DNA of 64,000 bases from an uncultured Clostridia bacterium (GCA_934754445.1 CAKVHZ010000004.1:30-64029), one strand, 5' to 3'; positions 3,977 to 28,649 are shown, numbered from the stretch's first letter. Notes: generated by a model not told the origin, from the letters alone. Made by a program: numbers and translations.

Positions 3977-3994
3977 TTAAAAAAGGGGAATTTT

Positions 3995-4530: not shown

Positions 4531-4558
4531 AAGAAGAAATTAAATTTCTTCTTTTTTT
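4531..4558 (+). terminator. Rho-independent terminator
   Basis: Stem aagaagaaat / atttcttctt, loop taa, then a T-run. Confidence 0.8.
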
Positions 4559-4733: not shown

Positions 4734-4916
4734 ATGACAATAGAAGGATTACAAGAAATGCAAGAGAAACTTGCAGATTTAAAACATCAAAAATATCTTA
4801 TAGAAAATATACTTGGTAAATGCAACGATATGAATGTTTGCTCAAGGTTACAAGAAAAGTTAGATAGGATAAATTTAGATATATTGTTTTACGAAAATGA
4901 ACTTGATATAGATTAA
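4734..4916 (+). CDS. Small hypothetical protein, coiled-coil-like
   Basis: 60 aa with a strong SD (aaaggaggt) 7 nt upstream. Confidence 0.5.
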   Translation: MTIEGLQEMQEKLADLKHQKYLIENILGKCNDMNVCSRLQEKLDRINLDILFYENELDID

Positions 4917-4986
4917 ATGTGAGTATTAATTATATTTTAATTGTAAAATATCTTTTTATGTGTTATAATTATAAAGAGGTGTTTTT

Positions 4987-5982
4987 ATGGAATTTTTGCT
5001 AGCCGATTTAGATAAAGAAAACGAAAAATATCTTAGAAAAGATATTGATGGCGGAATTTTGAGCGAAAAGTATGAGATTGATAGATATAAATATCAACAA
5101 TATAATGATGTTGTAGATAATCTTATGCTGGGAAATTACAACGAATTTGGTGAGTATGTTCTTCAAGATGAAATAAAAGAAGAATTATTAAAATGCAGAA
5201 AAGTTATTGAAGATAATTATGAAAATATTTTGTTTGTAAAGAGTGAAGAACAAGTTAATGTGTTTAGTTACTTAAATTTTGCAGTAAAAGTTTTAGATAG
5301 CAATAAATTAGGTTACAAAGTTGCTATACTAGAATTATTAGAACCGATTTACAAAACAAAAGGTTATATAGAAAATACTCAAGCGACAATAATTAAAAAA
5401 ATTGTGCTTCCTAATAATGACATTTTTAAGGAAGAAGTTTATAAGGCATTTAACATTATTGTAGATAATTTAAATGGTAAAAGATATGTAAATGATATTG
5501 ATGAATTTAAAAATATTTTAGATAGAAAAATTAGGCTTTTGTATATAAAAAAGCATATTAGTTTGCAAGACGATTTTATGATGTGTTATAAAAAGAATGT
5601 CGAAGAATTAGATAAAACTGAAGAAGGTAAAAAAGTTTTAGAAGAATATAAAAAAGAAGAAATTGTCGCCGAGAAATATCTTAAAGTTAAAGAAGATGAC
5701 TACAAATCTAAAAATGAACTATTAACAACTAATATTGAAAAGAACTTTAAAACCGTTCCTAAACTAATAAGTAGAAATATCCTAGAATTAGAAATGAAAA
5801 AGGCAAGATTAATAAAACAATTAATTAATAGCCTAGATGAAAGTTTACTTAATGATAAAAAGCCAAAAACGGTTATTAGGGTAATTGAAAAACCTAAAAT
5901 TAAAGTTGTTGATAAAAAAATGGTAAATAAAAAACAAAAAACATTTAAAAGATTAATGGAAGACGATAGTTTACTAAGGTAG
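4987..5982 (+). CDS. Hypothetical K/E-rich protein
   Basis: 331 aa ORF with SD agaggtg. No motif recognised. Confidence 0.6.
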   Translation: MEFLLADLDKENEKYLRKDIDGGILSEKYEIDRYKYQQYNDVVDNLMLGNYNEFGEYVLQDEIKEELLKCRKVIEDNYENILFVKSEEQVNVFSYLNFAVKVLDSNKLGYKVAILELLEPIYKTKGYIENTQATIIKKIVLPNNDIFKEEVYKAFNIIVDNLNGKRYVNDIDEFKNILDRKIRLLYIKKHISLQDDFMMCYKKNVEELDKTEEGKKVLEEYKKEEIVAEKYLKVKEDDYKSKNELLTTNIEKNFKTVPKLISRNILELEMKKARLIKQLINSLDESLLNDKKPKTVIRVIEKPKIKVVDKKMVNKKQKTFKRLMEDDSLLR

Positions 5983-12980: not shown

Positions 12981-15900
12981 ATGAAAAAAATTTTAATATA
13001 TATATTTACTTTTATATTAACTGTTATTGCTTCGGCCCTTGGAACAATTGGCATAAACAATATTTTTTTGCAGGCGAGTTCAAAGGGTAATCAAGAAAAT
13101 CAAACTACAGTTACTCCCACAAAAGAAAAATCAGACGGCGAAAAATTACTTGATGGACTTTTAAGTTTAAATGGAATAAACATTAATTTAAATGTGAATT
13201 TATTAAATAATAATACATCTACACAACTTATGAGTGTTTCAAGCGAAAACAAAAATAATGTTAAAACAAATATTAAGTTTAATGGCAGTTTTAGTATTCA
13301 AGATTTAGAAAACATTAAATTAAAAGGGACATTAACTATCACTAATGCAAGCACCAACATTGTTTTAAATATTTCATTCTTAAATAATGTTTTATACCTT
13401 TCTAATGATTCTATGAATATAAAACTAGAAGTCGCTAGTTTAACAAAAATCTTTGATTTACTTCCACAACTTGGACTAAACCTAGATTTAGGTATTGATA
13501 TGGGTAGTATAGATTCGCAAGAATTACTATCTAACTTACAAAATCTTAAAGCTGAAGTTTTAGAAGATGGCAGTTTAAAAATGCCTTTTAAAATAACTGA
13601 TGATTTATGTTTAAATATTTTTGCTGATAAAGATTATGTGGTTACAGGTATTGAAACTGATATTTTAAAAATAAAAAATAATCTTTTAAAAATTGATGCA
13701 GTTATTAATAAAAATGAAGAATTGCAAATTGAAAGCCCAGATGTTGATGATAGTTTTGCCGATGTTACAAAAACAATAAACATTCTAGACAATGTAAAAG
13801 ATGTTTTAAGTAGCAAAAATTTACATGTTTATGTAAATGCTAGTTCTGTAGGTAAATTACAAGCAAATCTAAAAGGTGATGTTTATTTAGATTTTAACAA
13901 TAAATTTAATTTGCTAACCATTTTGAAAGTTGAATATAATAATAAAACTTATGATGTAACTTTTAGTTGTTTAAATGACACAATTTATTTATCTTTAAAT
14001 AACTTAAAATTTAAAATAACTAAAGAAAATTTAGAAGAAACTATTGACTTTATTGTTAAAGAGTTTAATCTAGACAAAACTGAAATGTTCAAGACTTTTA
14101 ATTCAATTACTAATTTTGACTTAAAGAGTATAAAAAATAATATAAATAATATTGATATAAATAACTTACTAGAATTTTCTAAAGGCAATGAAAATTCAAT
14201 TTGTCTAAAAATTAATAGTAAACTACTAGGCATAGAAGAAGACTTTAATGTTGAAATGAAATTTGATGATGAAAAATTTAATGGCATAGTTTTATCAAAC
14301 ATTAATGTTTTAGATAGTGTTGTTAATGCCGAAATTACATATAAAGATAACTTTGATATGATAGAAATTGATACAAAAGAATATCAAAGTTTAGAAAATT
14401 TAAAAGATTTTATAAAATCAACAAAAACTACAATTGATAAATATTTAAACGAAAAACAATTTGGAATAAAATTAACTGATTTTAATATTGTTTTAAATAA
14501 TCAAAGTTTTTTTGTAAACGGAACAATATTAGTGAACTTAAAAAATGCTATTAAAGAAAATAACGAGTTTGATATCAGCAATTTAAATGGTTATGCAAAC
14601 TTAACTTTATTAAATAATCAAAAAACTTATAATGTGATAATCCATCTACAAAATGGGCGAGTATATTTATCTTATAATAATTTAAATTTAAGCGTAGATA
14701 TAAATAAAGTAAAAAATGTAGTAGAAATAGTAAATCAAATTAAATTTATAAGTGAAAGTTTAAATAATATTAATTTTACAGAAACTACAATGCGAGAACT
14801 TATAGAAAAATCTAAACAACAATCAAATCAATTTAAATTTGCCCTTTCAGATGTTTTAAGTTCAAGCACCATAGAAAAATTTAAAAACACATTAAAAACT
14901 AATTTAAACGATTTTAACTTAGATGATATAAAACAATTTAGTTTATCAGATAAACAATTATCAATTATTTTAGCTAAAACTTTATTTAATCAAGATAATG
15001 ACATTGAATTAAATTTAGGATATGATAAATTAATTAATGAAATAAGTTTTAATTTAATTAAAGTTAAAACTATGAGTGTTTGTGGAACAGTTAACTTGTT
15101 AGAGAACTATCAAGTACCTTTAATTGACAAAAACATTTATTCAAGTTTAGATTCTATTGAAAACTTATTTAATGCTATTTCTAACACTGCAATAGATATT
15201 GTTGATGATAAACATATCACTTTTGATTTAAACACTGAGTTTATTAACACAAAATTTGAGAAAAATTCTAAAGATGTTATCACTAAAGAAACAGAAACTT
15301 TAATATCTTTACAACCTTCAAGTTTTGCTAGTTTTGATTTTAGTGATGCGTATAGTTATGAAAAAAATAAAAACAATTTTGACTTTAAAAAATTAAAAGC
15401 TCAAATTACTTTTAATGTTAATGTAACGACTAAAATTTATCCTTACGAAAATGGTGTAAAAAATAATACTCCAACTAAAACAGTAAACAACACACATAAT
15501 TTAGAAATCACTTATTTAAATAATGTTATTTACATTAAATTTAATAAAATGTATGCAAAAATAAGTGGGGATAGCATTAAAGGCATTATCTCTACAGTTT
15601 GTGAAATGTTAAACATAGATGTTAATGAAAATTTAATTCAAAATATCAAAAATTTGATTTCACAAAATGGTGATAGCAATAATTTATTAGAAAAATTAAA
15701 CGATTTAATTATAAATAGCATTAATTTAACAGACTCTAACCTAAAACTAGATTTAACAACGAGTAAAATTGGTAATTTAAAAATCAACTTAGATTATAAT
15801 AATTTAGGATTAAGCAAATTAAATATTAAAAATTTAAAATTAAAAAATAATCAAATAAATAACTTAGATATTAATTTGAAAGAATTTGAACCAATTTCTT

Positions 15901-18077
15901 ATAATTTAAACAATAATTACATAGATTTATCAAATATTGACGAACTTTTAATAGCTGTTAAAAACACTACAGAATTTAACGATTTTGAAATAGATGGAAG
16001 CATTAATTTAAAATTAAAAGTTTTAAGCGTAAATATTGACTGGAATATTCCATTGAATGCAAAAGTAAAACTTTTAGATGAAGGTTTTGAAGCATCTATC
16101 AAAATTGGTGCAATTCCAGTTATTCCAGGTGTGAATGATGATACTCCTTATAAAGCTGGTAACACAGTTAGTGGAATTTACTCAGCACTAAATAGAATTT
16201 TAAATGTTTATATTAAAGATAATATGGTTTACTTCCATAGGTCAGAAGAAGTGCCAGTATTCTTAGTAGATAATAGAATTTATGAAAAGAAACTAAAAAT
16301 TCATATTGATACACTTTTAAACGACCCACTATATTATGTTTTACAATACGGTTTTGGCTTTAGTGATTCAATTATGAGCGAAATAAGCAAATCATTTAAA
16401 AAAGAAAGAGAAAATCCTTTAGATTACTCAAACATTTTAAAAGATTTTAGTAGTAGTTCTAATGCTTATTCTTTAACTTTAAATTTAAAAGAACTTGTAG
16501 AAAATGATAAATTAGACACAATGACTTTAGGTGTAATCACTAAAATGTTTAATGAAAAATCTATTATTGGTGCAATAAACTTTAATATGTATATGCCATT
16601 AACCGATAGTGTTAATATTACTTTAAGTTCAAACGAATTGTTGCATAAAAATATAGGTCAAACTATTAATTTTGATAATGTTTATGAATATATTAATAAT
16701 AATTCTCAATATAAAGAAGGGGCAGAGTGGGATGCATATAATGGTGACTGGCAACTTGCTGGTCAAAGAAAATTCACTCTAAGTTTTGAAACTAATAGCA
16801 AGCAACAACTAGAAAATATTGTTGCAATTGCTGGTTCAAAAATCACTCTTCCTACTTTAAATAGTTATTATCAAGATGAAAATAAAACAAGAAAAACTTA
16901 TACATTCGCGGGTTGGTATACAACTAAAACTTTTGATAAAAATACTGAGTATACAAGTAATGTAATGCCAAGAAAAGATACTACACTTTATGCTAAGTGG
17001 GAAGTAACTACTTTAAATTATATTACTATTCATTTTGTTACTAATGGTGGAAGCGAATTAGAAGATTTATGCGTTCTTGAAAATTCAGTTATAAGTTTAC
17101 CCCAATATTTTGAATTAATTACTATCGAAAACGATTTAGGTATATTTACTAAACAATTTGATGGTTGGTGCTTAGATGAAAATTGTGAAGTTATGTTTGA
17201 AAATAATATTGCCCCAAATAGCGATATCACTTTATATGCAAAATGGTCGGTTATTGATAGTAAAGAAACATATTTAGTAACAATTTATGATAATGCAGAA
17301 AAAATATCAACAAGAAGAGTTTTAGAAGGAAATTCCATAACTCTTGCTGGTAATAAATTCACAAGCACAACTAAATATTATTTAGATAGTGAATATAAAA
17401 CCGAAATTGATATTGCTTCGTTTGTAATGCCAAGTAACGATGTTGTTATTTATATAAAAAATGAATATAACGTAACGGTTAAATCTGATTATGGTGTAGT
17501 TACAAATAATACTATATCAATTTATCAAGGTAGCATTGTAGAAATTGTTAGTCAACAAGATTATTTTGAAGATGATGGCACGCAAACTGAAAGAACAATC
17601 TATACTTTTAATGGTTATTATTATGGTGGCGAAAAAATCAATGATATTTCAAATTTTATCATGCCAAATAAAGATGTAACAATTGTTGCAAATTGGACTA
17701 TTGTAGTTAAACAATATGTTACTATTACCTTTAATGTAAACTGGGCTAAACCAGATAGTTGGCAAGATAACAATAGTAATGCTTTTGGTAAAATAACTTG
17801 CAAACAATCAGCAGTAGCACTGCAAAGTTTTAAAATTTTAGAAGGTTATTCATTTAATCCATCAATTTATACTGCACAGTGCAGTTATGAATATAGGGCA
17901 GTAGGAATTAAAAAAACATATAAATTTGTTGTTCATTCTTGGAGCATTAACGGAACAAAACAACTTTCTTACAACAAATTAGCAACCGAACCCAAAACAG
18001 AAAGTTATGATGTTTTAACAAATTTAACAATTACCGAAGACACAATTTTATACGCTGTTTGGAAATACGCAGGTTAA
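12981..18077 (+). CDS. Giant surface protein (1698 aa) with C-terminal Listeria-Bacteroides (Flg_new-type) repeats
   Basis: N-terminal signal/anchor. About five C-terminal repeats of the type TFAGWYT...LYAKW, FDGWCLD...LYAKW, FNGYYYG...IVANW and ...LYAVWK. The N-terminal two thirds contain a recurring ..YL.NN.IYLS.NN.. module. Confidence 0.8.
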   Translation: MKKILIYIFTFILTVIASALGTIGINNIFLQASSKGNQENQTTVTPTKEKSDGEKLLDGLLSLNGININLNVNLLNNNTSTQLMSVSSENKNNVKTNIKFNGSFSIQDLENIKLKGTLTITNASTNIVLNISFLNNVLYLSNDSMNIKLEVASLTKIFDLLPQLGLNLDLGIDMGSIDSQELLSNLQNLKAEVLEDGSLKMPFKITDDLCLNIFADKDYVVTGIETDILKIKNNLLKIDAVINKNEELQIESPDVDDSFADVTKTINILDNVKDVLSSKNLHVYVNASSVGKLQANLKGDVYLDFNNKFNLLTILKVEYNNKTYDVTFSCLNDTIYLSLNNLKFKITKENLEETIDFIVKEFNLDKTEMFKTFNSITNFDLKSIKNNINNIDINNLLEFSKGNENSICLKINSKLLGIEEDFNVEMKFDDEKFNGIVLSNINVLDSVVNAEITYKDNFDMIEIDTKEYQSLENLKDFIKSTKTTIDKYLNEKQFGIKLTDFNIVLNNQSFFVNGTILVNLKNAIKENNEFDISNLNGYANLTLLNNQKTYNVIIHLQNGRVYLSYNNLNLSVDINKVKNVVEIVNQIKFISESLNNINFTETTMRELIEKSKQQSNQFKFALSDVLSSSTIEKFKNTLKTNLNDFNLDDIKQFSLSDKQLSIILAKTLFNQDNDIELNLGYDKLINEISFNLIKVKTMSVCGTVNLLENYQVPLIDKNIYSSLDSIENLFNAISNTAIDIVDDKHITFDLNTEFINTKFEKNSKDVITKETETLISLQPSSFASFDFSDAYSYEKNKNNFDFKKLKAQITFNVNVTTKIYPYENGVKNNTPTKTVNNTHNLEITYLNNVIYIKFNKMYAKISGDSIKGIISTVCEMLNIDVNENLIQNIKNLISQNGDSNNLLEKLNDLIINSINLTDSNLKLDLTTSKIGNLKINLDYNNLGLSKLNIKNLKLKNNQINNLDINLKEFEPISYNLNNNYIDLSNIDELLIAVKNTTEFNDFEIDGSINLKLKVLSVNIDWNIPLNAKVKLLDEGFEASIKIGAIPVIPGVNDDTPYKAGNTVSGIYSALNRILNVYIKDNMVYFHRSEEVPVFLVDNRIYEKKLKIHIDTLLNDPLYYVLQYGFGFSDSIMSEISKSFKKERENPLDYSNILKDFSSSSNAYSLTLNLKELVENDKLDTMTLGVITKMFNEKSIIGAINFNMYMPLTDSVNITLSSNELLHKNIGQTINFDNVYEYINNNSQYKEGAEWDAYNGDWQLAGQRKFTLSFETNSKQQLENIVAIAGSKITLPTLNSYYQDENKTRKTYTFAGWYTTKTFDKNTEYTSNVMPRKDTTLYAKWEVTTLNYITIHFVTNGGSELEDLCVLENSVISLPQYFELITIENDLGIFTKQFDGWCLDENCEVMFENNIAPNSDITLYAKWSVIDSKETYLVTIYDNAEKISTRRVLEGNSITLAGNKFTSTTKYYLDSEYKTEIDIASFVMPSNDVVIYIKNEYNVTVKSDYGVVTNNTISIYQGSIVEIVSQQDYFEDDGTQTERTIYTFNGYYYGGEKINDISNFIMPNKDVTIVANWTIVVKQYVTITFNVNWAKPDSWQDNNSNAFGKITCKQSAVALQSFKILEGYSFNPSIYTAQCSYEYRAVGIKKTYKFVVHSWSINGTKQLSYNKLATEPKTESYDVLTNLTITEDTILYAVWKYAG

Positions 18078-18083
18078 TAAAAA

Positions 18084-18116
18084 ATAGAAAAAGGTTAATA
18101 CTTTTTCTATTTTTTT
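18084..18116. terminator. Bidirectional terminator
   Basis: Stem atagaaaaag / ctttttctat flanked by A- and T-runs, between convergent genes. Confidence 0.8.
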
Positions 18117-18142
18117 ATGTATATAAATATGTATTTATATGT

Positions 18143-18439
18143 CTATTTTAATAATTCTTTTAACGCAACTTTTTTGCTTTCAGGAAGATTTTTAATGATA
18201 GATAAGTTTGATTTGTCAATTTTATAACAGTTTACATCTTCATAAAAAAATTCTTCTGGGGTAATTCCACAAGCGTCTATAATATCTAAAACAATTTTCA
18301 TAGAAGGTTCAAATTCACCTGCTTCCATTTTTGTAATATAGGCAGAATTTTTGCCAATAGTTAAACTTAATGCTCTTGCACTATAATTTGCTTTGTTTCT
18401 AAAATATCCAATTCGCCTTATAACTTCTTTTAAATCCAT
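18143..18439 (-). CDS. XRE-family HTH transcriptional regulator
   Basis: 98 aa with an HTH_3-like segment (YSARALSLTIGKNSAYITKMEAGEFEPS). Confidence 0.8.
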   Translation of the reverse strand: MDLKEVIRRIGYFRNKANYSARALSLTIGKNSAYITKMEAGEFEPSMKIVLDIIDACGITPEEFFYEDVNCYKIDKSNLSIIKNLPESKKVALKELLK

Positions 18440-18577
18440 AAAATGTCCCTTAATTTTATATTGTTTATCTATACAATAATTATACTTTTAATAATAAATT
18501 AATATTATTCGTTTAAAATGATAAATCTAAAAATTTCGCAACATTTTATTGCTTATAATGAAATATTTTAAATACTA

Positions 18578-18606
18578 TTGACTTTTTAGGGAATGTTATA
18601 TATAAT
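18578..18606 (+). promoter_or_regulatory. Sigma-70-type promoter in the divergent region
   Basis: TTGACT, 17 nt spacer, TATAAT. A second extended -10 (TGgTATAAT) lies at 18707-18715. Confidence 0.5.
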
Positions 18607-18744
18607 TATAGATAATAAGAACCAAATAATACTATTATATTGTAAATTGAGTTTTTAATTAAAAATTTAAAAAATGTAATTTAAAAAAACAATTTAAGAA
18701 ATTTTATGGTATAATTGGTTATAATTAAAACAAAGGAGCGAAAT

Positions 18745-19560
18745 ATGAAAATTAGTGATAAAGATATAAGTGAGATGGTTGAAAAATACAAGAAAAAAAC
18801 AAAAAAGAAATGTTATGAAATGCAACTATTTGTAGCAGATTATGATGACGAAATTAAAATTTTAGATGATAAACTTGGTGGAAGACCATATCTTCCTGTT
18901 GGTGAAAAATATCCAGTAGACAAAAGAGGGAATCCTATGCCTCTTCTTTTACAAATTAATTTAAAAAATGTTGACTTAAAAAATTATCCAAAACAAGGAA
19001 TTTTAGAAGTGTTCACAAACATTGAGTATCCAATGGAATATCAAGTTAAACTTTTTGAAGAAGGTCTTGAATATCAAACAGAATTTCCAGAAACAAAAGC
19101 ATATTACAATGGCGAAGAGTTTGAATATTTTGTTAAAAAACCACTTTTAGTAAAATTAAGAGAAACAACTATGCACATGCCAACCACTAATTACAAAAGC
19201 AGGAAAATTGGTGAAAAAATTTTCAAAGAACAATTTGAAAATAAAGTTAGCAAGGAAGAACTTGACGACTTTTTAAAAAATAAGTTTAGAGATTTTTGGG
19301 ACGACAAACTTGATGATGAGATTGATAAACATTTAGATTATTATTGGTTTAACTTTGGTGGATATCCAAATTTTAGTCAATATGATGCAAGACTAGACCT
19401 AAGACCAAGGAAAGATGAATGCGTTTTTTCATTTGACCCAATTGGTTATGAAGATTATGTTGAAATTGGCGATAGTGGAACAATGTGGGGATTTATGACA
19501 AAAGAAGATTTGAAAAACGGCAAGTTTGAAAATATGTTTGTTGACTATGATTGCTGTTAA
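18745..19560 (+). CDS. DUF1963 / YwqG-family protein
   Basis: Signature LGGRPYLPVGEKYPVDKRGNPMPLLLQINL and C-terminal GDSGTMWGF, typical of YwqG-like proteins. ATG with SD aaaggag. Confidence 0.7.
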   Translation: MKISDKDISEMVEKYKKKTKKKCYEMQLFVADYDDEIKILDDKLGGRPYLPVGEKYPVDKRGNPMPLLLQINLKNVDLKNYPKQGILEVFTNIEYPMEYQVKLFEEGLEYQTEFPETKAYYNGEEFEYFVKKPLLVKLRETTMHMPTTNYKSRKIGEKIFKEQFENKVSKEELDDFLKNKFRDFWDDKLDDEIDKHLDYYWFNFGGYPNFSQYDARLDLRPRKDECVFSFDPIGYEDYVEIGDSGTMWGFMTKEDLKNGKFENMFVDYDCC

Positions 19561-19574
19561 AAAAGGAAATTTTT

Positions 19575-20267
19575 ATGAATAATGTTATAAAAATTAAAAA
19601 AGAAGATTTATTTGACCAAAAAGTAGGAAACTATTTATATGAAGAAAATGGCGAACTATATTTTTGTAGTAAGCCAAGTTCAGCGATGTTTGAACTAAAA
19701 AGAGATTACAAAAATTATGATGAAACTTTAAATCATCACATGAATTTTGATGACTATGTTCAAAAATTTTTAGAAATTTGTGCAAAAATAGAGAACAAAC
19801 CATCACTTATATTTTTAAACTATGTTCCAAAAAATGTTATGATACTAAATGAAACTGAAGGAAGTTATAAAAGAAATTATAGTTTTTTGACAAATCTAAC
19901 AAGTGATGAAGATTTTGAAACACTTAATACAAAGCCAAGTATTATTTGTGAACCAATAGGAGTTATGGAAATTTTAAGACAACTTGTTGAAACAAGAAGC
20001 GAAAATGAACCACAAACCGATGTTTTCGTATTTTTCAATGAACCTGAAAAATATTGCAACTTAGATGAATGCCCTGGCATTGATTCCATTCTAACTGCTT
20101 GTAAAAATCGTAGAATTTATTTAGTTTTTAATTTCGTAAATTCTTATAAATTCATTGAAAGATATGGAATAGAGAGTTATGATTTAATAGAAAATTATTG
20201 TTCGGTTAAATTTATTTGCAACTTTAACGGAGTTGTAGATATTCAACCAACCAATAAAGTGGACTAA
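19575..20267 (+). CDS. Hypothetical protein
   Basis: 230 aa from the ATG with SD aaagga. No motif recognised. Confidence 0.6.
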   Translation: MNNVIKIKKEDLFDQKVGNYLYEENGELYFCSKPSSAMFELKRDYKNYDETLNHHMNFDDYVQKFLEICAKIENKPSLIFLNYVPKNVMILNETEGSYKRNYSFLTNLTSDEDFETLNTKPSIICEPIGVMEILRQLVETRSENEPQTDVFVFFNEPEKYCNLDECPGIDSILTACKNRRIYLVFNFVNSYKFIERYGIESYDLIENYCSVKFICNFNGVVDIQPTNKVD

Positions 20268-20277
20268 AGGAGAAAAA

Positions 20278-21348
20278 ATGAGAGTATATAGTAAAAAATT
20301 AAAAAACAGATTTAAAGATTTAATTAGCGAAATTGACAATAATGACAACTTAAATAAAAGACAGTTTGCCGAGGAAAAGGTTTTGCCGTTCTTGTTTGAC
20401 TTATTTGATGAAATTGTGGCTAACGATGGTTTAGATAAAGTAGGGCATGGATTTATTGAAAATGCAGGTGTTAATATGGCGATTGATCGAACTTTATCAG
20501 GAAATAACTTTTGTATTGAAAAAAATAATTTTTTTAAAATGTGGAACAATGGCTATCCATTATATGCATTAGAAAACAATATGCGTTCGGTTTTTCATGA
20601 AGCTAGACATCTTATACAAAGAGAATTGGTAATGGAAAATGATATTTTGAAATTATCGCCATATTCAATAATTTATGCAAAAGAAGAAATGATTGCAGTG
20701 GTTAATTATGATTTTTATATAAAAAATCATGATGAGTTTTTAATGGAAATTGAAGCAAATAGTAAAGCATGCACAGGAAGTGCGGAATTCATTTCTAGTG
20801 CTATGCCAAATTCCGATTATGCTACACAATATGCGGACGAAAATGATCCTGAGTCTGAATTTGCTTATGTTACACCAATATCAAGTTATTTTAAAGATTC
20901 TGATTATTGGGTTAGAAATAAAAGTTATTTAATTTCTAATGCATTTGATAATGCCTTAAAAGAAATGTCAGAAGTAAGTCTGCTAAGTACATTTAGAGGT
21001 CATCCTATTCTTAAATTGGCTTATCATGAAGATGGGACGAAAAAAAGCCTTGAAGAAATATTGTCTTTGCGTAAAGATATTATTAAGGCTAATTACAAAA
21101 ATTTGCAAAAAATAATAAAAGTTGATGACTACAAAACTACTATTTCATGTCATATCAACAAAATATTTGCAGTAATTATTTCAACTGATAAAGAATTAAG
21201 TGAAGATTTTGAAAATTATCTAAAGCAAAAAGAAGATGAAAAGGCGAGTAAAACAGATGATTCTACATTGAAACTAGAACAAAAATACAAACCAAAATCT
21301 CCTGAATTTATAAAAAATCAAAAAAATAAAAATGAAAGAACATTGTAA
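20278..21348 (+). CDS. Hypothetical protein with a zincin-like HExxH motif
   Basis: 356 aa. HEARH motif (VFHEARHLIQRE) with a downstream MEIEAN glutamate. SD aaaggaga. Confidence 0.6.
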   Translation: MRVYSKKLKNRFKDLISEIDNNDNLNKRQFAEEKVLPFLFDLFDEIVANDGLDKVGHGFIENAGVNMAIDRTLSGNNFCIEKNNFFKMWNNGYPLYALENNMRSVFHEARHLIQRELVMENDILKLSPYSIIYAKEEMIAVVNYDFYIKNHDEFLMEIEANSKACTGSAEFISSAMPNSDYATQYADENDPESEFAYVTPISSYFKDSDYWVRNKSYLISNAFDNALKEMSEVSLLSTFRGHPILKLAYHEDGTKKSLEEILSLRKDIIKANYKNLQKIIKVDDYKTTISCHINKIFAVIISTDKELSEDFENYLKQKEDEKASKTDDSTLKLEQKYKPKSPEFIKNQKNKNERTL

Positions 21349-21419: not shown

Positions 21420-21613
21420 ACTTATCAAGTAAAAACTTAGTATAAGTTCTTAAAATATATGTTATAATCAAAAAGAGTTTATTTAGAAGTGTGTCGCTAA
21501 CCCAATGATTTTTAGTTATAAATAAAAATTTTGTAAAAATAGGGGAATAAGAACCTGCTTAGCATACCCATGTGTTTCTAAAAAAATCGCCAAAATCCCA
21601 GGGAAATAAAGCG

Positions 21614-21673
21614 TTTAGCGATTTTTAATGAGTGGAGCTAACGAGCAGACTCGAACTGCCGACCTTTCGCTTA
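21614..21673. repeat. attL: orphan copy of the tRNA-Thr 3' part plus 19 nt of downstream sequence
   Basis: 60/60 identical to 28518-28577 when written out base by base. Confidence 0.9.
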
Positions 21674-21770
21674 GCAAAACTCTGTTCTAACACACAAGAG
21701 TTTTGCCCTATCTCCTAAATCGCCCATAAAATAAGCGAATTTGAGATATAAAAAATCAATTAGTGTAGTA

Positions 21771-21806
21771 AGATTTTAGTTTACTACACTTTTTTACACC
21801 TAAATT
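21771..21806 (+). terminator. Rho-independent terminator just inside attL
   Basis: Stem gtgtagtaa / ttactacac followed by tttttt. Confidence 0.6.
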
Positions 21807-21892
21807 AACAATTTTAGTGAAATTAAGTGTTCTAAAACTATATAAAACTGCCTAAAACTTTTGTAGGCTTTACAAAAAATGTTTATATATTT

Positions 21893-21940
21893 GTTGACTT
21901 TCACAACAAAATGTGGCAAATTATTGTTGTGAAAGTCAAC
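21893..21940. repeat. Perfect 17-bp inverted repeat (operator or leader hairpin)
   Basis: gttgactttcacaacaa (21893-21909) and ttgttgtgaaagtcaac (21924-21940) with a 14-nt spacer, directly upstream of SD gaggtg and the ATG at 21951. Confidence 0.85.
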
Positions 21941-21950
21941 GAGGTGTGAA

Positions 21951-22191
21951 ATGAGAAACTATACCAAATTATTAGAACTTGCAAAACAAAATAATGGTAA
22001 AATGTCATGATATTCATAGAATAATTTGTGACTTGTTTAGCAATAAGTATGTTGGAGATAAATTTGTTCAAATAGAAGCTTTGAAAAATTATTTAAAACT
22101 ACCAAACAAAGATACTGTTAAACTAATGAAATATGCAAAGGTTCTTGGTGTTGACAAACAACTAAGAGAAAAGTTAGAGGTACTGATTTAA
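21951..22191 (+). pseudogene. Small islet gene, possibly split by a frameshift
   Basis: A well-placed SD and ATG at 21951 give only 19 aa (MRNYTKLLELAKQNNGKMS) before a stop. The 21979..22191 ORF continues in the +1 frame without its own SD. Confidence 0.35.
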
Positions 22192-22370
22192 TGAACACAT
22201 CAAACAATTGAAGGTTTTAATTAACAATAAGGTAAAACAGTATAATCTTAATCCACAAATTCTTTTACAATTAATATACAACAATATGTATAAGATAATA
22301 TACAAGATGTTTGACTTTTTATTTTTTATTGGTTATAATCTATTTGTACAAAAATAAGTGAGGTTTTTAA

Positions 22371-23360
22371 ATGGAAGATAGATATATTCCACCATACGAG
22401 ATAACTGATGAAATGTTGGAATTTGTTTCCGAAATAATGGAAAATTTAGGCAAACTTTCGGGTGTTAATGAATTGGAAAAATTACCAAGGCTTCGCAGAG
22501 TGAGCAGAATAAAGTCTATTCATTCTTCATTAGCAATTGAAAACAATACACTTTCTATTGAACAAGTAACAGATGTCATCAATGGGAAAAGGGTTCTTGC
22601 TCCACAAAAAGATATTGAAGAAGTCCACAATGCTTTTAATGCTTACGAAAAATTAAGTGAAATAAATCCATATAGCGTTGATGATTTATTGAAAATTCAC
22701 GGCATTATGATGAATGGTCTTGTAAAGGAAGCAGGAAGTCTTCGCTCAGGACAAGTTGGAGTTTATAATCAAGATGGCAAAGTTGTTCATCTTGCTCCAC
22801 CAGCAGATTTTGTTCCACAACAGTTAGGACAACTTTTTGATTGGGCGAAAAACAGCAATGCAAATATGTTAATTAAATCGAGTGTTTTTCATTATGAGTT
22901 TGAATTTATCCACCCATTTAATGATGGTAACGGAAGAACTGGAAGACTTTGGCAAACAGCATTGCTTGCTAGTTGGAAACCAATATTTGCTTGGATACCT
23001 ATTGAAAGCATTATTAAAGATAATCAAGAAGATTATTACAATGCAATCACTTTATCTACTAGTCAGGGCAAATCTAATATCTTCATTGAGTTTATGCTAG
23101 ATGTAATTAACAAAGCAATTAAAGACATAATAACCGACACTAGAAATCACTATAACCATATCAACAATCAAATTACAGAACTTATGAAAGTGGTTGAAAG
23201 TTATCCACAATCGTCAACGGAACTTATGGAAAAATTAAACCTAAAATCTCGTTTAGGATTTAGAAAGAACTATTTGCAACCCGCCCTAGATGCCGGACTA
23301 ATTGGAATGACCGAACCCGACAAACCAACAAGCAAAAATCAAAAGTATTTTAAGATATAG
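22371..23360 (+). CDS. Fic-family protein (AMPylase-type) with N-terminal inhibitory helix and C-terminal wHTH-like region
   Basis: Canonical Fic motif HPFNDGNGRTGR and inhibitory motif SLAIEN (S/TxxxEG/N) at aa ~52-58; 329 aa. Confidence 0.85.
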   Translation: MEDRYIPPYEITDEMLEFVSEIMENLGKLSGVNELEKLPRLRRVSRIKSIHSSLAIENNTLSIEQVTDVINGKRVLAPQKDIEEVHNAFNAYEKLSEINPYSVDDLLKIHGIMMNGLVKEAGSLRSGQVGVYNQDGKVVHLAPPADFVPQQLGQLFDWAKNSNANMLIKSSVFHYEFEFIHPFNDGNGRTGRLWQTALLASWKPIFAWIPIESIIKDNQEDYYNAITLSTSQGKSNIFIEFMLDVINKAIKDIITDTRNHYNHINNQITELMKVVESYPQSSTELMEKLNLKSRLGFRKNYLQPALDAGLIGMTEPDKPTSKNQKYFKI

Positions 23361-23371
23361 TAGGTGTAAAT

Positions 23372-24099
23372 ATGGGCGGATATGTAGAATTTGGAAAAAT
23401 AGAATATATAAATGAAGACAAAACTCCAATGAATGAAGAAAAAGAAAAGTTTTTGAAATATTTAAACTTGTATAGAAATGCCGGCAATTTTATTTCGATC
23501 GCCTTAAACACTATTGACCAACTTACCAGCAAGAAAACAAAACTGGCACAATTTGCTCCTGCATTTGTAAATTGTGTTCACTACTCTTTTTGGTCTACAA
23601 GTGTAATACTTTTAAATTGTTTTTATTCTCGTGGCGATGATTTGTCAATTTTTTCTTTTATGGAATACATGAGAAATAACTACAACAAAATTTTTACTGG
23701 TAAGTTTTATGATATTTATATTCATTCAGACAGAAAAGAAACAAAAAAAATAAAATTTGGCAAAAAAGAAATTTTTGAACGACTTAATCAATGTGAAAAC
23801 ATAATTAAAGAGAATAATGAATTATTGGAAAAACTTGATACATTTAGGAATGAAATGTTTGCACATTTCAGTGAAGACAAAAGAACAAATTAGAAAATCA
23901 ACACCTTAATATCAAAGAATTACAAGAACTTTTATCATTGACAGAAAAAATAATTAACAATTTAAAAATTCCTTATGATAGAACTTTTGAAAGCTTTGAA
24001 CCGGTAAACTCAAAAGATATATTAGGAATTGAACACATTTTAGAATTATACGAAGAAAATCGTGAATTGATAAAAAGCGAACACATAAAAAATATTTAA
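23372..24099 (+). pseudogene. HEPN (AbiU2/Abi-like) gene interrupted by a frameshift
   Basis: The first ORF (173 aa) ends 8 codons after an Rx4-6H-type motif (FRNEMFAH). A second frame is open from 23875 to 24099 (72 aa, NKLENQHLNIKELQELL...). The overlap contains an A4 run at 23879-23882. Confidence 0.55.
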
Positions 24100-24101
24100 A
24101 A

Positions 24102-24125
24102 AAGAAGACTGATTAAAGTCTTCTT
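24102..24125. terminator. Bidirectional terminator between convergent islet genes
   Basis: Stem aagaagact / agtcttctt, flanked by an A-run and T-rich sequence. Confidence 0.7.
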
Positions 24126-24130
24126 TATTG

Positions 24131-24580
24131 TTAGATGTAAATTATTGGTTTGTTTATCTTTTGAGCATATTTTACTGTGCGGTAGGCACCGCTTTTGTAG
24201 GTTTCTTCTATGTGGCAAACTAGAATATCGCTATTATCAACAATCCACTCGTTTCGTTTTGTGATTTTTTGTTTGTAATGCAATTCTTCTATCTCTGGAA
24301 ATATTGAACCATCATAGCAAGATGGCAAATCATACTTTTCTTTGTCGTGGTGGTAATATGTTAAAATTTTATAGATTTTTATTTGTGGATATTTTCGTTT
24401 AAGTTCAAACACGGCATTGGTACACTTTTTATCAAAAGCACCATAGTGTCCGTCATAAAAGATGGTGTAACCTTTATTGATTAAATCTTCTAGAACTTCT
24501 GGCAATTTGTTTTCTACGCCAATGCAATGCCACTCGTATCTATGACCAGCAAAAGCCACAACTTTTTCTTTATTTTCCAT
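24131..24580 (-). CDS. SLOG-superfamily protein (DUF1273 / YpsA-like)
   Basis: N-terminal VVAFAGHR motif and overall YpsA/DUF1273-like pattern. The start at 24580 has SD aaggaa. 149 aa. Confidence 0.6.
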   Translation of the reverse strand: MENKEKVVAFAGHRYEWHCIGVENKLPEVLEDLINKGYTIFYDGHYGAFDKKCTNAVFELKRKYPQIKIYKILTYYHHDKEKYDLPSCYDGSIFPEIEELHYKQKITKRNEWIVDNSDILVCHIEETYKSGAYRTVKYAQKINKPIIYI

Positions 24581-25051
24581 ATTGTTCCTTTTAAGAAAAC
24601 AAATAATAGATGGTAAAATCAATAAGTTTTTAATATCATAAATTCTTATGGTAGGTGTAAAAAAATAAATGGCTTTTAATTAGAAAAAGCCAATTAAAGT
24701 AAAGAAAATGAATAATATTTTAGTTAAAAATCAATCAAAATTGCATTTTTGCATATAAAAAAGACCAACTATCATAAGAATAGGTGGCTTTTAATTATGG
24801 TTATCAAAAATAATTTTAACAAATTTTCAAAATATAAATTTACTCCCTTAATTTGTGAGCTTACGATGTCCTTATAATAATGGGAGACAAGATGAAAGCG
24901 ACACCTTTAGGTGGCATTTTCATAGGGTCGACATTATTTCAATCAAGAAAATTTGCCTTGGCAAAAAATTGCACAGCAATTTCAATGCGATAGCAGTATT
25001 TTCTTCAATTATAAAGATAGAAGGGCAACCTTTACAAGTTAAAATAAATAA

Positions 25052-25059
25052 GGGGGGGG
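25052..25059 (+). repeat. G8 homopolymer directly upstream of the integrase start
   Basis: aaGGGGGGGGaaattttatATG. It stands out in this AT-rich sequence and doubles as the SD. Confidence 0.9.
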
Positions 25060-25068
25060 AAATTTTAT

Positions 25069-26004
25069 ATGAAACTTAAAGAATGGCTAAGTGTATGGCT
25101 AGAAAAATACACAAAACACACTGTGAAACTGCGAACCTATGACCGATACAAATACATCATAGAAAAGCACATCAATCCAAAACTTGGAGATTATGAATTA
25201 GATGACCTAAATGGTGAGATTTTTCAAGACTTTGTTTTGAGTGAACTTGAAAATGGCAATCTAAACACAAACGGAAAACTTGCTAACAACTCTGTTATTG
25301 GAATTGTGAATGTTTTGAAAGGTAGTATGGCACTTGCAAAGTCTTTGGATAAGGTGAAAAGAGATGAAATAAAGAAAATAAAGTTGCCAAGTCCAACCGA
25401 AAAACCGGTCACTGCTTTTGAAAAACATGAACAAGAAAAGATTGAAAAGTATTGCCTTGCTTCAAACAAAAGTAATTACATTGGAATTGTAATTTGTCTT
25501 TATACTGGAATTAGACTTGGAGAACTATTGGCACTCACTTGGGAAGATATAGATTTTCAAACTGGAATTATGAGCATTACAAAAACTAGTTATAGAATTA
25601 AAGAGAATGGCGTGCCTAGAATTGTGATAGATAATCCTAAAACCAAAAATTCAAGCAGAGTTATACCGCTTCCAAAAGCATTATTAGATATTTTGAAGAA
25701 AATTAAGAAAACATCTAATTCAAAATATGTTATATCAACCCGCAACGGTGGAATTGTTGGAATAAGAGCATATCAAAGAACTTATGAAAGAATTTTAAGT
25801 AAAATTGGAGTTGGTTATAAAAACTTCCACTCACTTCGTCATACTTTTGCAACTCGTGCATTAGAGTTGGGAATGGATGTCAAAACTCTATCAGAAATTC
25901 TTGGACACAAAAATCCAGTTGTAACTCTTACTAGATACACCCATTCAATGATGTCTTACAAAACAGATATGATGAACAAAATGGGTAAAATGCTTGCTGT
26001 CTAG
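25069..26004 (+). CDS. int: Tyrosine recombinase / phage-type integrase
   Basis: SAM-like core-binding N-domain. The catalytic region has GIRLGELLAL (Arg), HSLRHTFATRA (HxxR) and GHKNPVVTLTRYTH (His, Tyr). Confidence 0.9.
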   Translation: MKLKEWLSVWLEKYTKHTVKLRTYDRYKYIIEKHINPKLGDYELDDLNGEIFQDFVLSELENGNLNTNGKLANNSVIGIVNVLKGSMALAKSLDKVKRDEIKKIKLPSPTEKPVTAFEKHEQEKIEKYCLASNKSNYIGIVICLYTGIRLGELLALTWEDIDFQTGIMSITKTSYRIKENGVPRIVIDNPKTKNSSRVIPLPKALLDILKKIKKTSNSKYVISTRNGGIVGIRAYQRTYERILSKIGVGYKNFHSLRHTFATRALELGMDVKTLSEILGHKNPVVTLTRYTHSMMSYKTDMMNKMGKMLAV

Positions 26005-26164
26005 TTTTGTCGAATGTGATAAATTACTAAAATTCTATGTTAAAATGATAAAAAATGAAAATTTGTGAACCTGAAAAATTGCAAGAATGCAAACGCTTGA
26101 GAAAAGAAAAAGATTTTGAGATATGAATAAATGGCAGTGAATGTTGAATTTGACAAAAACCATA

Positions 26165-26173
26165 TGATATAAT
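26165..26173 (+). promoter_or_regulatory. Extended -10 promoter element (TGaTATAAT) for the four-gene block
   Basis: TG-n-TATAAT, followed about 7 nt later by a 14-bp stem hairpin (26180-26216), SD aaaggagg and the ATG at 26246. Confidence 0.5.
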
Positions 26174-26245
26174 ACAAGGAAAAGGTTGAAGAAACGCAAT
26201 TGTTCTTCAACCTTTTGCATTCTAAAAGGAGGTATGATATAATAA

Positions 26246-26575
26246 ATGGAGAAAGGTCCTAGTACTTATGCTGAATATTGGACAAGTGAATATGCTGAAG
26301 TAAATCATTTTTATTTTCATGCATATGATATGGGATATACATATATAACAGATTATTCACAAGCGGCTATAAATTTTGCGTTAAAAAAGGGAGATAGTAT
26401 AATATCTTTTACAGCAAATGAAAAAAAATTTCATTCAACTTACAAATATGATGTAGAAACGAATGAATTTATTATTATTTCTAGGGATGGTAAAATTGTT
26501 ACGTATTATTTACCTGAAGACGGAATTAATTATTTCTATAGTCAATTTGATAAATATGGAGATTATTGGAATTAA
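26246..26575 (+). CDS. Small hypothetical protein (109 aa, Tyr/aromatic-rich)
   Basis: Strong SD aaaggagg. No family recognised. First gene of a tightly spaced co-directional block. Confidence 0.65.
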   Translation: MEKGPSTYAEYWTSEYAEVNHFYFHAYDMGYTYITDYSQAAINFALKKGDSIISFTANEKKFHSTYKYDVETNEFIIISRDGKIVTYYLPEDGINYFYSQFDKYGDYWN

Positions 26576-26587
26576 AAGGAGAAAGTT

Positions 26588-26884
26588 ATGAAAGAAAAAA
26601 TTGAAGATAAAACAACCCACGCAAACAAATGCAAAATATGTGGAATGGGAAATATAAATTTCATTCACGAAATATGTATATATTGTGGTTGGGAAGATGA
26701 TGGTTTGCAAAACGAACAGCCAGATTATATGGGTGGTGCAAATCATATGAGTTTTAACCAATATAAGAAATTTTGGGAAGAAAATAAAAAAGAAATTTTG
26801 AATGCTGACAATACCTGCTTTAAAGCGATTGATTTGGCAAGAAAATATTATGAAAAAAATTATAAAAATCATAAGTTGAATTAA
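26588..26884 (+). CDS. Cysteine-rich CPCC-family protein
   Basis: CKICG...ICIYCGWEDDGLQNEQPDYMGGANHMSFNQY matches the CPCC-family pattern (CxxC, ICxxCxWEDD, GGAN). SD aaaggagaa. Confidence 0.7.
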   Translation: MKEKIEDKTTHANKCKICGMGNINFIHEICIYCGWEDDGLQNEQPDYMGGANHMSFNQYKKFWEENKKEILNADNTCFKAIDLARKYYEKNYKNHKLN

Positions 26885-26917
26885 GTTTAACCTATGATTT
26901 TTTTGTAAGGAGTTTTT

Positions 26918-27610
26918 ATGAAAGAAAGATATGAAGTTGATAACAATTTAACACAAGAAAAAACTGAATATGAAAAAGAAAAGCTAACGAAAAAACTTAA
27001 ACTAGTTAGAAATGAATTTAAAACAGTTGGAAAATACGGTATGCCACTAATAAAAAAACAAGAAATTGATTTAGATAAAATCGATTTATGGAATTACACA
27101 AAGACAAAATTAAACGATGTAGATAATAAAGATAAAACGATTCACTTTTTTACTTATGATTGGTTATTTGAAAATGTTTATGAAAAACCAGAACTAGCTA
27201 TGGAAAAATTGAAACAATATTATGCGGTGTTATCTCCAGAATTTAGTTTATACTGGGATATGCCAAAGGCACTCCAAATTTTTAGTACATTTAAAAATAG
27301 ATGGTGTGGTGCGTTTTTTCAAAAGCATGGAATGAAAGTGATACCGACAGTATGCTGTGCTGGCGATGATAGTTATGATTTTTGTTTTGATGGTATAGAA
27401 CAGGGCTCTGTAGTTGCAGTATCAACTTATTGTAGAGAAGAATATAAACATGAATTTATGAAAAGCTATAATAAAATGATGGAAGTAATTAAACCTACTG
27501 GAATTATTTGTTATGGAACACCATTTGATGAAATGACAGGAAAAATTAGGTCTATTAGTCCATTCGACCAAGAAGAATTAATAGCAAAATGGGCTTTGAA
27601 AACTATATGA
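26918..27610 (+). CDS. DUF4417-like protein
   Basis: Blocks HFFTYDWLFE, AVLSPEFSLYWDMP, FKNRWCGAFFQKHGMKVIPTV and GSVVAVSTY resemble the DUF4417 consensus as I recall it. Confidence 0.55.
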   Translation: MKERYEVDNNLTQEKTEYEKEKLTKKLKLVRNEFKTVGKYGMPLIKKQEIDLDKIDLWNYTKTKLNDVDNKDKTIHFFTYDWLFENVYEKPELAMEKLKQYYAVLSPEFSLYWDMPKALQIFSTFKNRWCGAFFQKHGMKVIPTVCCAGDDSYDFCFDGIEQGSVVAVSTYCREEYKHEFMKSYNKMMEVIKPTGIICYGTPFDEMTGKIRSISPFDQEELIAKWALKTI

Positions 27611-27655
27611 AAAAATATATGTCGGGCGAGTTATATCCAACAAGGTAGGTATGGT

Positions 27656-28423
27656 ATGAAAGATTTGAAATTAAACATTGAATTATTGCCTAAGGGTGCT
27701 TGGGGTAATGATTTTAGTAGAACATTGGCTAAAAAAGATTGGGATACATTAAGAAGGGTCTGCCATGATAAAGCAAATCATAAATGTACAATTTGTGGAT
27801 TTGAAACAGATGATTTAGATGCTCATGAAGTCTGGGATTTTGATATTGAAACAAAAACTCAAAAACTTAAAGACATAATTTCTATTTGTAGTAAATGTCA
27901 TGGGGTTAAACATATTAGAAATTCGCAAAGGCTGGGCTTTGGAGAAAATGCGAAAAGACATTTTATGGAAGTAAACAACTGTAATGAATTGGAATTTGCG
28001 AAGCATTTAGCCAAAGCTCAAATGGATTTTGAAGAAAGGAATAAAATTTATAGATGGAAGATTGTCGCAGATTTAGAAAAATTTGGTGGAAGAAATATTG
28101 AAATTAAAGAAATCTTTATTCCATTAATTAAATCAGAATATAAACAAGATGAATTAAACATACTTAAAAATGAATGTGGTTTTGAACCTAGGATTTTAGA
28201 GATCAATATTGATAATTACCAAGGGACTATATCTATAACCTGTGACAAAACTAATAAAATTGAATGGTTTGATGAAAATAATAATTTGTTAAATACAAAA
28301 TATAATTTTGGCGAAAAATTTAACACAAATTTTTCTGTTAAAGATTTAAGATGTTTATATTTAAAATTTAAGTTAACAGGAGAGTATGGCGAAAAGGTTT
28401 CTAAAAAATTTGATTTATTTTAA
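27656..28423 (+). CDS. Zn-ribbon / HNH-like protein with an unknown C-terminal domain
   Basis: CTICG...DAHEVWDF...CSKCHGVKHI is a CxxC..HE..CxxCH..H arrangement. 255 aa. Confidence 0.45.
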   Translation: MKDLKLNIELLPKGAWGNDFSRTLAKKDWDTLRRVCHDKANHKCTICGFETDDLDAHEVWDFDIETKTQKLKDIISICSKCHGVKHIRNSQRLGFGENAKRHFMEVNNCNELEFAKHLAKAQMDFEERNKIYRWKIVADLEKFGGRNIEIKEIFIPLIKSEYKQDELNILKNECGFEPRILEINIDNYQGTISITCDKTNKIEWFDENNNLLNTKYNFGEKFNTNFSVKDLRCLYLKFKLTGEYGEKVSKKFDLF

Positions 28424-28485
28424 TGTAAATAAATTGACAGCAAATGTTTTTTGCCTTAAAAATTTTGTTAAAAATATGAAAATAA

Positions 28486-28530
28486 AAAATCGCTAAAACC
28501 TTAGGAATATAAATGGTTTTAGCGATTTTT
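28486..28530. terminator. Bidirectional terminator downstream of tRNA-Thr
   Basis: 15-bp stem aaaatcgctaaaacc / ggttttagcgatttt. On the minus strand it is followed by a T-run. Confidence 0.75.
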
Positions 28531-28577
28531 AATGAGTGGAGCTAACGAGCAGACTCGAACTGCCGACCTTTCGCTTA
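28518..28577. repeat. attR: direct repeat overlapping the 3' part of the intact tRNA-Thr
   Basis: Identical to 21614-21673. It covers tRNA nt 36-76 plus 19 nt downstream. Confidence 0.9.
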
Positions 28578-28612
28578 CCAAGCGAATGCGCTACCTACTG
28601 CGCCACGTTAGC
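28537..28612 (-). tRNA. tRNA-Thr (anticodon GGU)
   Basis: The reverse complement folds as a 76-nt cloverleaf: acceptor GCTAACG/CGTTAGC, D arm GCGC-AGTAGGTA-GCGC, anticodon arm TTCGC-TTGGTAA-GCGAA, T arm GGCAG-TTCGAGT-CTGCT, with encoded CCA. Confidence 0.9.
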
Positions 28613-28620: not shown

Positions 28621-28649
28621 AATATAGCAAACTTATTTTGTTTTGTCAA
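28621..28649 (-). promoter_or_regulatory. Sigma-70-type promoter of tRNA-Thr
   Basis: On the minus strand: TTGACA, 17 nt spacer, TATATT, about 8 nt before the tRNA 5' end. Confidence 0.6.

Follow-up and report, generated by a model that had tools for sequence, protein, structure and literature searches.

A probable small genomic island with conflict-type cargo at the tRNA-Thr(GGU) gene of an uncultured gut Clostridia bacterium

Results

Direct repeat and tRNA gene

We analysed a 64,000-nucleotide (nt) stretch of DNA from an uncultured Clostridia bacterium (GCA_934754445.1, CAKVHZ010000004.1:30-64029; hereafter the window, with positions counted from its first letter), in which about 6.9 kb carrying a tyrosine integrase gene, here called int312, lies between an intact tRNA-Thr(GGU) gene and a fragment of such a gene. 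A first-pass annotation had described this segment as an integrative islet bounded by a perfect 60-bp direct repeat. The only tRNA gene in the window, called by both ARAGORN and Rfam (69.1 bits), is a tRNA-Thr(GGT) on the minus strand at 28537-28612. A repeat finder paired 21614-21677 with 28518-28581, start to start 6,904 nt apart; the 64 nt differ at one position and the first 60 are identical (60/60), as had been claimed. Judged from its length, an exact repeat of this kind is not expected to have arisen by chance in 64 kb, and we exclude such an origin.

The right copy of the repeat comprises tRNA positions 36-76 (28537-28577) and the 19 nt downstream of the tRNA (28518-28536). No tRNA was called by ARAGORN at the left copy, which is an orphan 3′ fragment of tRNA-Thr(GGU): the 3′ half lies at 21633-21673, on the minus strand, and is likewise accompanied by 19 nt of downstream sequence. 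Both descriptions agree with the first-pass annotation. That annotation had further taken the end of identity, inside the anticodon loop, for the crossover position. The mismatch does lie there (21674 G versus 28578 C, the middle anticodon base), but the next three bases, CAA, match again, so that it is better read as a point mutation within a 7-nt core than as the point of crossover. The anticodon loop reads TTAGCAA at 21671-21677 and TTACCAA at 28575-28581, and because the similarity resumes beyond the mismatch we place the true junction after the 7-nt loop. The deviant G at 21674 is also present in an independent assembly from a different sample (L002; loci retrieved for comparison are given L numbers). 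An anticodon-loop sublocation class for integration into tRNA genes was reportedly described by Williams in 2002. In the terms used for site-specific integration, the left copy with its mutated core is attR (21614-21677, minus strand; 63 of 64 positions shared with 28518-28581), and the intact tRNA with the core TTACCAA forms attL.

To the left of both copies a weaker similarity continues (21581-21616 versus 28484-28519, 78% over 36 nt), spanning the terminator hairpin and accompanied by a AAAATTTTGT(T)AAAAATA stretch. The suggestion that the attP site of the element was derived from a related tRNA-Thr locus fits what we found in another species (L020), where sequence 92% identical to the window shares its terminator and the 19-nt spacer but adjoins a tRNA-Thr 3′ half that differs; beyond this come a core and a further module. 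Upstream of the tRNA, on the minus strand at 28621-28649, lies a strong host promoter (TTGACA, a 17-nt spacer, TATATT and an extended TG), with 11 of 12 matches the top count in the promoter scan, tied with 22311-22339. The flank containing it is the same in all strains.

Gene content of the island

Between the repeats, int312 (25069-26004, plus strand) is accompanied by genes of conflict-type or unknown families. The leftmost, at 21953-22191 on the plus strand, is an abiEi pseudogene in which the N-terminal ~16 codons are fused to the C-terminal ~65 codons, about 118 codons (roughly residues 47-164) having been deleted internally; abiEii is absent. The PADLOC AbiEi match (E = 4e-17) covers only profile positions 129-195 of 198, and in a tblastn search with the intact AbiEi of locus L023 only residues 30-46 and 165-229 match the window. 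Both AbiEi and AbiEii are intact at the same position in L023 and L018, and intact also in L021; of this pair, which together makes up an AbiE system, the window retains neither member intact. The next gene (22371-23360, plus strand) is intact and encodes a 329-amino acid (aa) SoFic-like Fic-domain protein with the motif HPFxDGNGR (Pfam Fic, 2.8e-21; Fic-like_C, 4.2e-21; PADLOC SoFic, 8.3e-45). It is followed by an AbiU2-like HEPN gene (23372-24099, plus strand; weak Pfam HEPN_AbiU2 match, E = 0.003), a pseudogene with a frameshift near 23885: the intact 248-aa homologue of L017 (2709-3455) aligns with it in frame 2 over residues 1-171 and in frame 1 over residues 166-240. In L017 the situation is reversed, the Fic gene being reduced to a C-terminal open reading frame (ORF) of 84 aa (2443-2697) while the adjacent AbiU2-like gene is intact. 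Cargo genes thus decay differently from copy to copy.

On the minus strand at 24131-24622 lies a gene for a SLOG/YpsA-like protein, whose Pfam YpsA score (2.1e-5) is below the gathering cut-off; its homologue in L021 passes that threshold. This is a conserved backbone gene: over 12 related loci have it, with 75-81% DNA identity, and in every case it lies upstream of the integrase gene, in divergent orientation. To the right of int312, four plus-strand genes (26246-28423; Pfam and PHROG) encode a 109-aa protein of unknown family (26246-26575), a Cys-rich CPCC protein (26588-26884), a DUF4417 protein (26918-27610) and an HNH endonuclease-like protein (27656-28423). The integrase, Fic and SLOG genes and these four are still open. 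The island differs in base composition from its surroundings (29.1% GC versus 25.2% in the 10 kb on each side), and nowhere else in the window does tetranucleotide usage deviate as much.

No housekeeping, conjugation or virion genes were found among the ORFs scanned in the island, and Pfam, PHROG and PADLOC results uphold the earlier description of its cargo. An integrative and conjugative element or an integrative and mobilizable element was rejected, as no relaxase, coupling protein, type IV secretion or mobilisation match was obtained for the scanned island ORFs (Pfam, NCBIfam). A prophage was rejected likewise: no island ORF gave a virion, packaging or lysis match (Pfam, PHROG). It could still be argued that the segment is a degraded prophage, or a satellite resembling the phage-inducible chromosomal islands and formerly dependent on a helper phage, given that int312 matches the PHROG integrase family phrog_1 (4.4e-67) and that the DUF4417, HNH and CPCC proteins match phrog_940 ('nuclease'), phrog_5200 ('HNH endonuclease') and phrog_6332, respectively. 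The integrase and a few phage-type nuclease genes would then be all that is left of it. We regard this as very improbable. Neither the island nor its complete relatives encode capsid, terminase, repressor, primase or packaging proteins; a search of 50,697 phage records returned no nucleotide match, and the closest phage integrase does not exceed 36% identity. A backbone of AbiE, SLOG, restriction-modification and integrase genes is, moreover, not the layout of a satellite.

Same-species strains differ exactly at the core

Contigs of the same species were collected by exact-protein look-ups of flank genes and came from human-gut metagenomes, including Hadza samples. All of them have an identical left flank up to the orphan fragment, whereas the DNA after the core differs, with four different states at this one junction. 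In two contigs (L002 and L004) the core is followed by the island as in the window. In three others (L094, L091 and L097) it is followed by a 1.1-kb mini-element without an integrase, lying between 99-nt repeats, and then by tRNA-Thr and a DnaI-like gene. One contig (L092) has a Wadjet (JetABCD) island here. In the remaining ones (L093; L095, which equals L001; and L100) there is a 3.1-kb module coding for a 303-aa protein, a sigma-70-like protein and a 366-aa protein, after which come more modules; a CTTACCAA core, with decayed tRNA 3′-half-like sequence before it, divides the first module from the next.

These contigs allow some further observations. The mini-element of L094 (5660-6861) contains one ORF, of 102 aa and without family match. 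TTGACA[ACGT]C repeats, several in number, are spread over its two arms, of which the right one is homologous to 28428-28517 of the window. The Wadjet island of L092 (JetA-JetD, 1-5962) adjoins the same orphan fragment and has a left arm resembling that of the mini-element. A scan of a genome collection with the DnaI-like flank protein, for synteny or an empty site, recovered no relatives. The left flank itself (12981-21348), which encodes a 1,698-aa surface-type protein with Flg_new repeats, a helix-turn-helix protein, a DUF1963 protein and two proteins without family match, is the same in all strains examined. Since the native region downstream of the tRNA (21520-21613) resembles the right arms of the elements, this flank might be an older, fixed insertion.

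Taken together, these data lead us to conclude, with a probability of roughly 0.8, that the DNA from ~21678 to ~28574 is one integrated copy of a small genomic island that is neither conjugative nor a phage, inserted by its own integrase and since then partly degraded; the reading given in the first-pass annotation is thereby supported. The opposite view, that a tRNA 3′ end was duplicated locally and flanks ancestral genes by chance, has the bare presence of the repeat in its favour and nothing more. It is effectively refuted, as strains with identical flanks have different content between the repeats, other species have homologous modules at tRNA-Thr and the base composition is deviant.

The integrase and its relatives

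int312 encodes a protein of 311 aa with a SAM-like core-binding domain (PF14659) and a catalytic domain (PF00589), and so is the tyrosine recombinase that the first-pass annotation had placed inside the islet. In an alignment with the integrase of Tn1549 (6EN0) all the catalytic residues are kept (R, K, HxxR, H and Y; motifs GIRLGE, PKTKNSSR, HSLRHT, GHKN and RYTH), and by sequence the enzyme is catalytically complete. Its SAM-like domain begins at residue 3, and there is no N-terminal arm-binding domain. The idea that the protein is truncated, raised by its length, was discarded: at least 6,852 homologues were found at E ≤ 1e-20, nearly all of them 310-313 aa long among the 120 matches listed, and the ATG follows a strong ribosome-binding site. 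The protein is thus natively short. int312 is also about as long as the crystallised Tn1549 chain (317 aa), presumably a construct without the N-terminal arm-binding domain; the arrangement of arm-binding, core-binding and catalytic domains typical of Tn916/Tn1549 integrases is not present in int312.

A scan of one genome per species gave 77 int312 loci. In 11 species-level genome bins the integrase matches the window copy with 93-98% identity but has different cargo around it, which indicates recent spread. Assemblies tend to break in the integrase gene or just upstream of it (L002 ends at the equivalent of window position ~25179 and L004 at that of ~25292; L008 and L009 start 160 nt upstream of the gene), which fits the presence of near-identical integrase copies in co-occurring strains or species. 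In L024 (10936-11480) the neighbours of an integrase 93% identical to that of the window, at a distance of 220 nt, are a terminator and a tRNA-Glu(TTC)-Met-Met cluster instead of tRNA-Thr. No orphan fragment of tRNA-Glu was seen within 10 kb, and the locus may reflect a change of target or a coincidence.

BLAST searches with tRNA-Thr sequences, together with a search for the core, showed that int312 loci are arranged around tRNA-Thr(GGU) or its fragments. Two modules bounded by two cores contain int312 as their only recombinase. The first (L021) measures 10.4 kb, with a 45-nt direct repeat, and encodes AbiEi/AbiEii, an nSTAND-HNH protein, SLOG, a restriction gene, a C5 methylase and int312; the second (L023-E1) measures 7.7 kb and encodes AbiEi/AbiEii, SLOG, HNH, an EcoRI-type methylase and int312. 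The family backbone can be written as left arm, AbiE, variable cargo, SLOG, optional restriction-modification genes, int312, optional cargo, terminator with tRNA 3′ half, and core. Homologous junctions in L023, L018 and L101-L103 read TTACCAA. Of five copies of the left arm recovered from metagenomes, three have TTACCAA at the junction and one ATACCAA, the core being missing in the fifth. The sole sequence common to the family junctions is TTACCAA (plus strand), that is, the 7-nt anticodon loop TTGGTAA.

Integrases of other kinds are also found at this site, and tandem arrays with several integrase types are common there. This bears on the most serious rival explanation, namely that the segment in the window is a composite left by tandem accretion, with the left end of an int312-type element and the right end of another element (for example, the L094 mini-element) brought together by deletion of the boundary between them. 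The ends would then have been served in trans by a larger, arm-binding integrase of 464-480 aa like those of L006 and L023, and int312 would not be the inserting enzyme. Such an origin would account for a right arm (28428-28517) common to the integrase-less mini-element, and for the presence of TTGACAnC repeats, which resemble arm-type sites, in related arms next to an integrase that has no arm-binding domain. Against it stand three findings. The sequence from 25068 to 28446, with integrase and four cargo genes, and the right arm are contiguous and 92% identical in L020; int312 is the sole recombinase between the two cores of L021 and L023-E1; and no internal core or tRNA fragment lies within 21678-28517. 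We consider a composite origin improbable, if less so than the other alternatives, and prefer that of a single island inserted by int312.

Some relatives are organized differently at the tRNA. In five loci an intact tRNA-Thr(GGU) stands at the end of the element (L006, 15927-16091; L028, 6325-6599; L079, 10780-10951; L039, 12701-12840; L101, 1527-1660), followed by a spacer of 50-70 nt, a TTACCAA core and one or two orphan 5′ halves that belong to another tRNA-Thr, with a matching orphan 3′ half at the far end of the island. As judged from this layout, these relatives seem to split the host tRNA and to replace it by a complete one that has a promoter of its own. Large integrases are encoded by the tRNA-carrying modules of L006 (464 aa) and L023 (480 aa). 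The window does not have this arrangement of a split host tRNA and a complete element-borne tRNA with the same anticodon, and neither a second core nor an orphan 5′ tRNA half was found near the island.

Decay of the window copy

The copy in the window is decaying. Relative to intact relatives it bears four lesions, namely the attR core TTAGCAA, the loss affecting abiEi and abiEii, the frameshift in the AbiU2-like gene and the loss of ~150 nt from the right arm, a stretch that bears several TTGACA[TG]C repeats in L020 and L094. Tyrosine recombinases such as lambda Int, Cre and FLP are known to be blocked when the overlap region contains mismatches. In view of this inhibition, the TTAGCAA core is expected to impair excision, which in the window copy is probably blocked or very inefficient; the element would thus be immobilised.

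The non-coding arms

The left arm (21678-21895, plus strand) is non-coding and conserved, with >90% identity to loci L023 and L018 from other species. In alignments with these (from 3411 in L023 and from 678 in L018) the similarity begins exactly at the core. The arm contains a hairpin adjoining the core (21675-21707), a terminator-like hairpin (21762-21790, followed by a T run), CTAAAAC repeats and a second imperfect palindrome. It is more conserved between species (21678-21895; L023, 3418-3640; L018, 685-905) than most coding sequence. In an Rfam scan of the island and left arm the tRNA alone passed and no family was assigned to the left arm; matches to HPnc0260 and mir-5014 were far below their thresholds and were dismissed as chance. 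The left arm could represent a set of protein-binding sites or a small RNA. Left arms of this type (type A) also occur at TTACCAA cores that have no tRNA 3′ half before them. In L102 (3733-3930) such a core lies 63 nt upstream of an intact tRNA-Thr, and in L018 (660-690) the core is found where an unrelated ORF ends; such cores may mark secondary sites or the joining of other modules.

Just 5′ of the abiEi start codon, reading of the sequence revealed a perfect 17-bp inverted repeat (21893-21940), probably an operator or promoter element, in a stretch that is not conserved in L023 or L018. A 13-nt sequence of the left arm, TTTTTTACACCTA (21790-21802), has an exact inverted match at 24652-24664, ~400 nt upstream of the integrase start. 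The latter site is in the divergent SLOG/integrase promoter region, near direct repeats at 24661-24682 and 24776-24797, and the integrase or a regulator might bind to the pair. The right arm (28428-28536) contains one TTGACAGC repeat, a AAAATTTTGTTAAAAATA stretch and a tRNA terminator hairpin that belongs to the element (28482-28533), and is common to the right ends of L020 and of the L094 mini-element.

Discussion

The arrangement at this locus can be explained by a simple model. int312 would recombine the attP site of the element with the anticodon loop of the host tRNA-Thr(GGU), strand exchange probably taking place in or at the edges of the 7-bp TTACCAA; we infer this position from the fact that no other sequence is common to all the junctions of the family. 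The element brings a tRNA 3′ half and its own terminator, so that the tRNA is regenerated at the right junction (attL) and the host 3′ half is displaced by 6.9 kb (attR). It delivers conflict-type cargo, here a SoFic-like Fic protein, remnants of AbiE and of an AbiU2-like HEPN protein, and SLOG, DUF4417 and HNH proteins. In the absence of an arm-binding domain, int312 may act as a simple tyrosine recombinase or may need accessory factors. Archaeal integrases of the SSV type, for which no arm-binding domain is known either, act as simple tyrosine recombinases.

Several points weigh against this explanation. A strictly empty site, for which the first-pass annotation had called, was not recovered, and a scan of metagenomes for the native left flank joined to a perfect core gave 0 matches; what relatives do provide is the replacement of content exactly at the core between identical flanks, and this passes the refutation test that the first-pass annotation had set for an insertion site. 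No circular attP junction was found, and a second metagenome scan yielded integrated or tandem junctions only. No excisionase or directionality factor was identified. The integrase gene has a mid-island position, 2.5 kb away from attL, and its product has no arm-binding domain, while the arms of related elements bear TTGACAnC repeats resembling arm-type sites. Because the right arm is shared with a mini-element that has no integrase, another integrase could act on it in trans. Finally, where the crossover lies and what the core mutation does are inferred from sequence comparison.

The island has the features by which a classical tRNA-integrated genomic island is recognized in sequence (Islander, PMC4383910): an intact tRNA gene with a displaced fragment in direct orientation, an internal tyrosine integrase and replacement at the att junction among relatives. 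As in the Islander set (PMC4383910), a tyrosine integrase is combined with insertion into a tRNA gene that is regenerated by element DNA, and the displaced 3′ fragment in direct orientation marks the far end. Unlike those islands, the one in the window has an integrase of 311 aa without an arm-binding domain, located mid-island and not beside the tRNA, and no evident excisionase. There is also a likeness to the tycheposons of Prochlorococcus (bioRxiv 10.1101/2020.12.28.424599), which are small cargo elements with tyrosine recombinases that use tRNA sites, carry partial tRNAs, stack and decay to islands with integrase fragments; the element described here differs in its gut Clostridia host, its defence rather than nutrient-related cargo and its lack of a replication module. 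By sequence, the closest solved structures to int312 are those of Tn916/Tn1549 integrases (6EN0, 6EMY and 6EMZ; E = 3e-17), with all catalytic motifs aligned, but int312 targets a tRNA core and not AT-rich sites, and no conjugation genes are nearby. The relatives that carry a complete tRNA-Thr (L006, L028, L079 and L039) recall the tRNA-dependent lysogeny of actinobacteriophages (PMC10865867), in that they share only a core of ~7 nt with the host tRNA, which they split. In contrast to that system, the window element regenerates the tRNA in the classical manner, and the relatives are islands with integrases of ~464-480 aa and not phages.

Modules are stacked at this site in several of the strains and species compared. 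In streptococci, accretion by repeated site-specific integration at one att site gives rise to tandem arrays, among them integrase-less derivatives known as cis-mobilizable elements. The L094 mini-element is such an integrase-less derivative; unlike the streptococcal elements, the window site has no conjugation or mobilisation genes. The variation of cargo on both sides of a conserved integrase also led us to consider an integron, a candidate rejected since the integron models scored 44.7 bits against a cut-off of 265 and 32.6 against 435, and since the modules are parted by tRNA-derived cores and not by attC hairpins. A broader idea, which we put forward as speculative and rather doubtful, is that the islet is a cassette of an undescribed and very abundant system of uncultured gut Clostridia, in which a 311-aa integrase that has no arm-binding domain, aided by larger integrases in neighbouring modules, stacks interchangeable defence modules in tandem at one 7-nt core that equals the anticodon loop of tRNA-Thr(GGU). 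The result would be an integron-like, tRNA-anchored array with AbiE, SLOG and integrase as its backbone, including integrase-less mini-modules and modules with a complete replacement tRNA.

For the annotation of this genome, what is gained is an islet of defence genes, acquired horizontally and variable among strains, whose ends are defined and which contains two pseudogenes and a probably immobilising core mutation. The finding does not overturn current understanding of tRNA-targeting integrases, as the island is an ordinary kind of mobile DNA, and its family context is more interesting than the copy in the window. Through an integrase family that counts homologues in the thousands, tRNA-Thr(GGU) becomes a hot spot at which anti-phage genes are exchanged in uncultured human-gut Clostridia. 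With a 7-nt core, an arm-less integrase and classical and tRNA-replacing modules side by side, this family may offer a model for how defence islands are assembled and exchanged, and possibly compact tools for site-specific integration.

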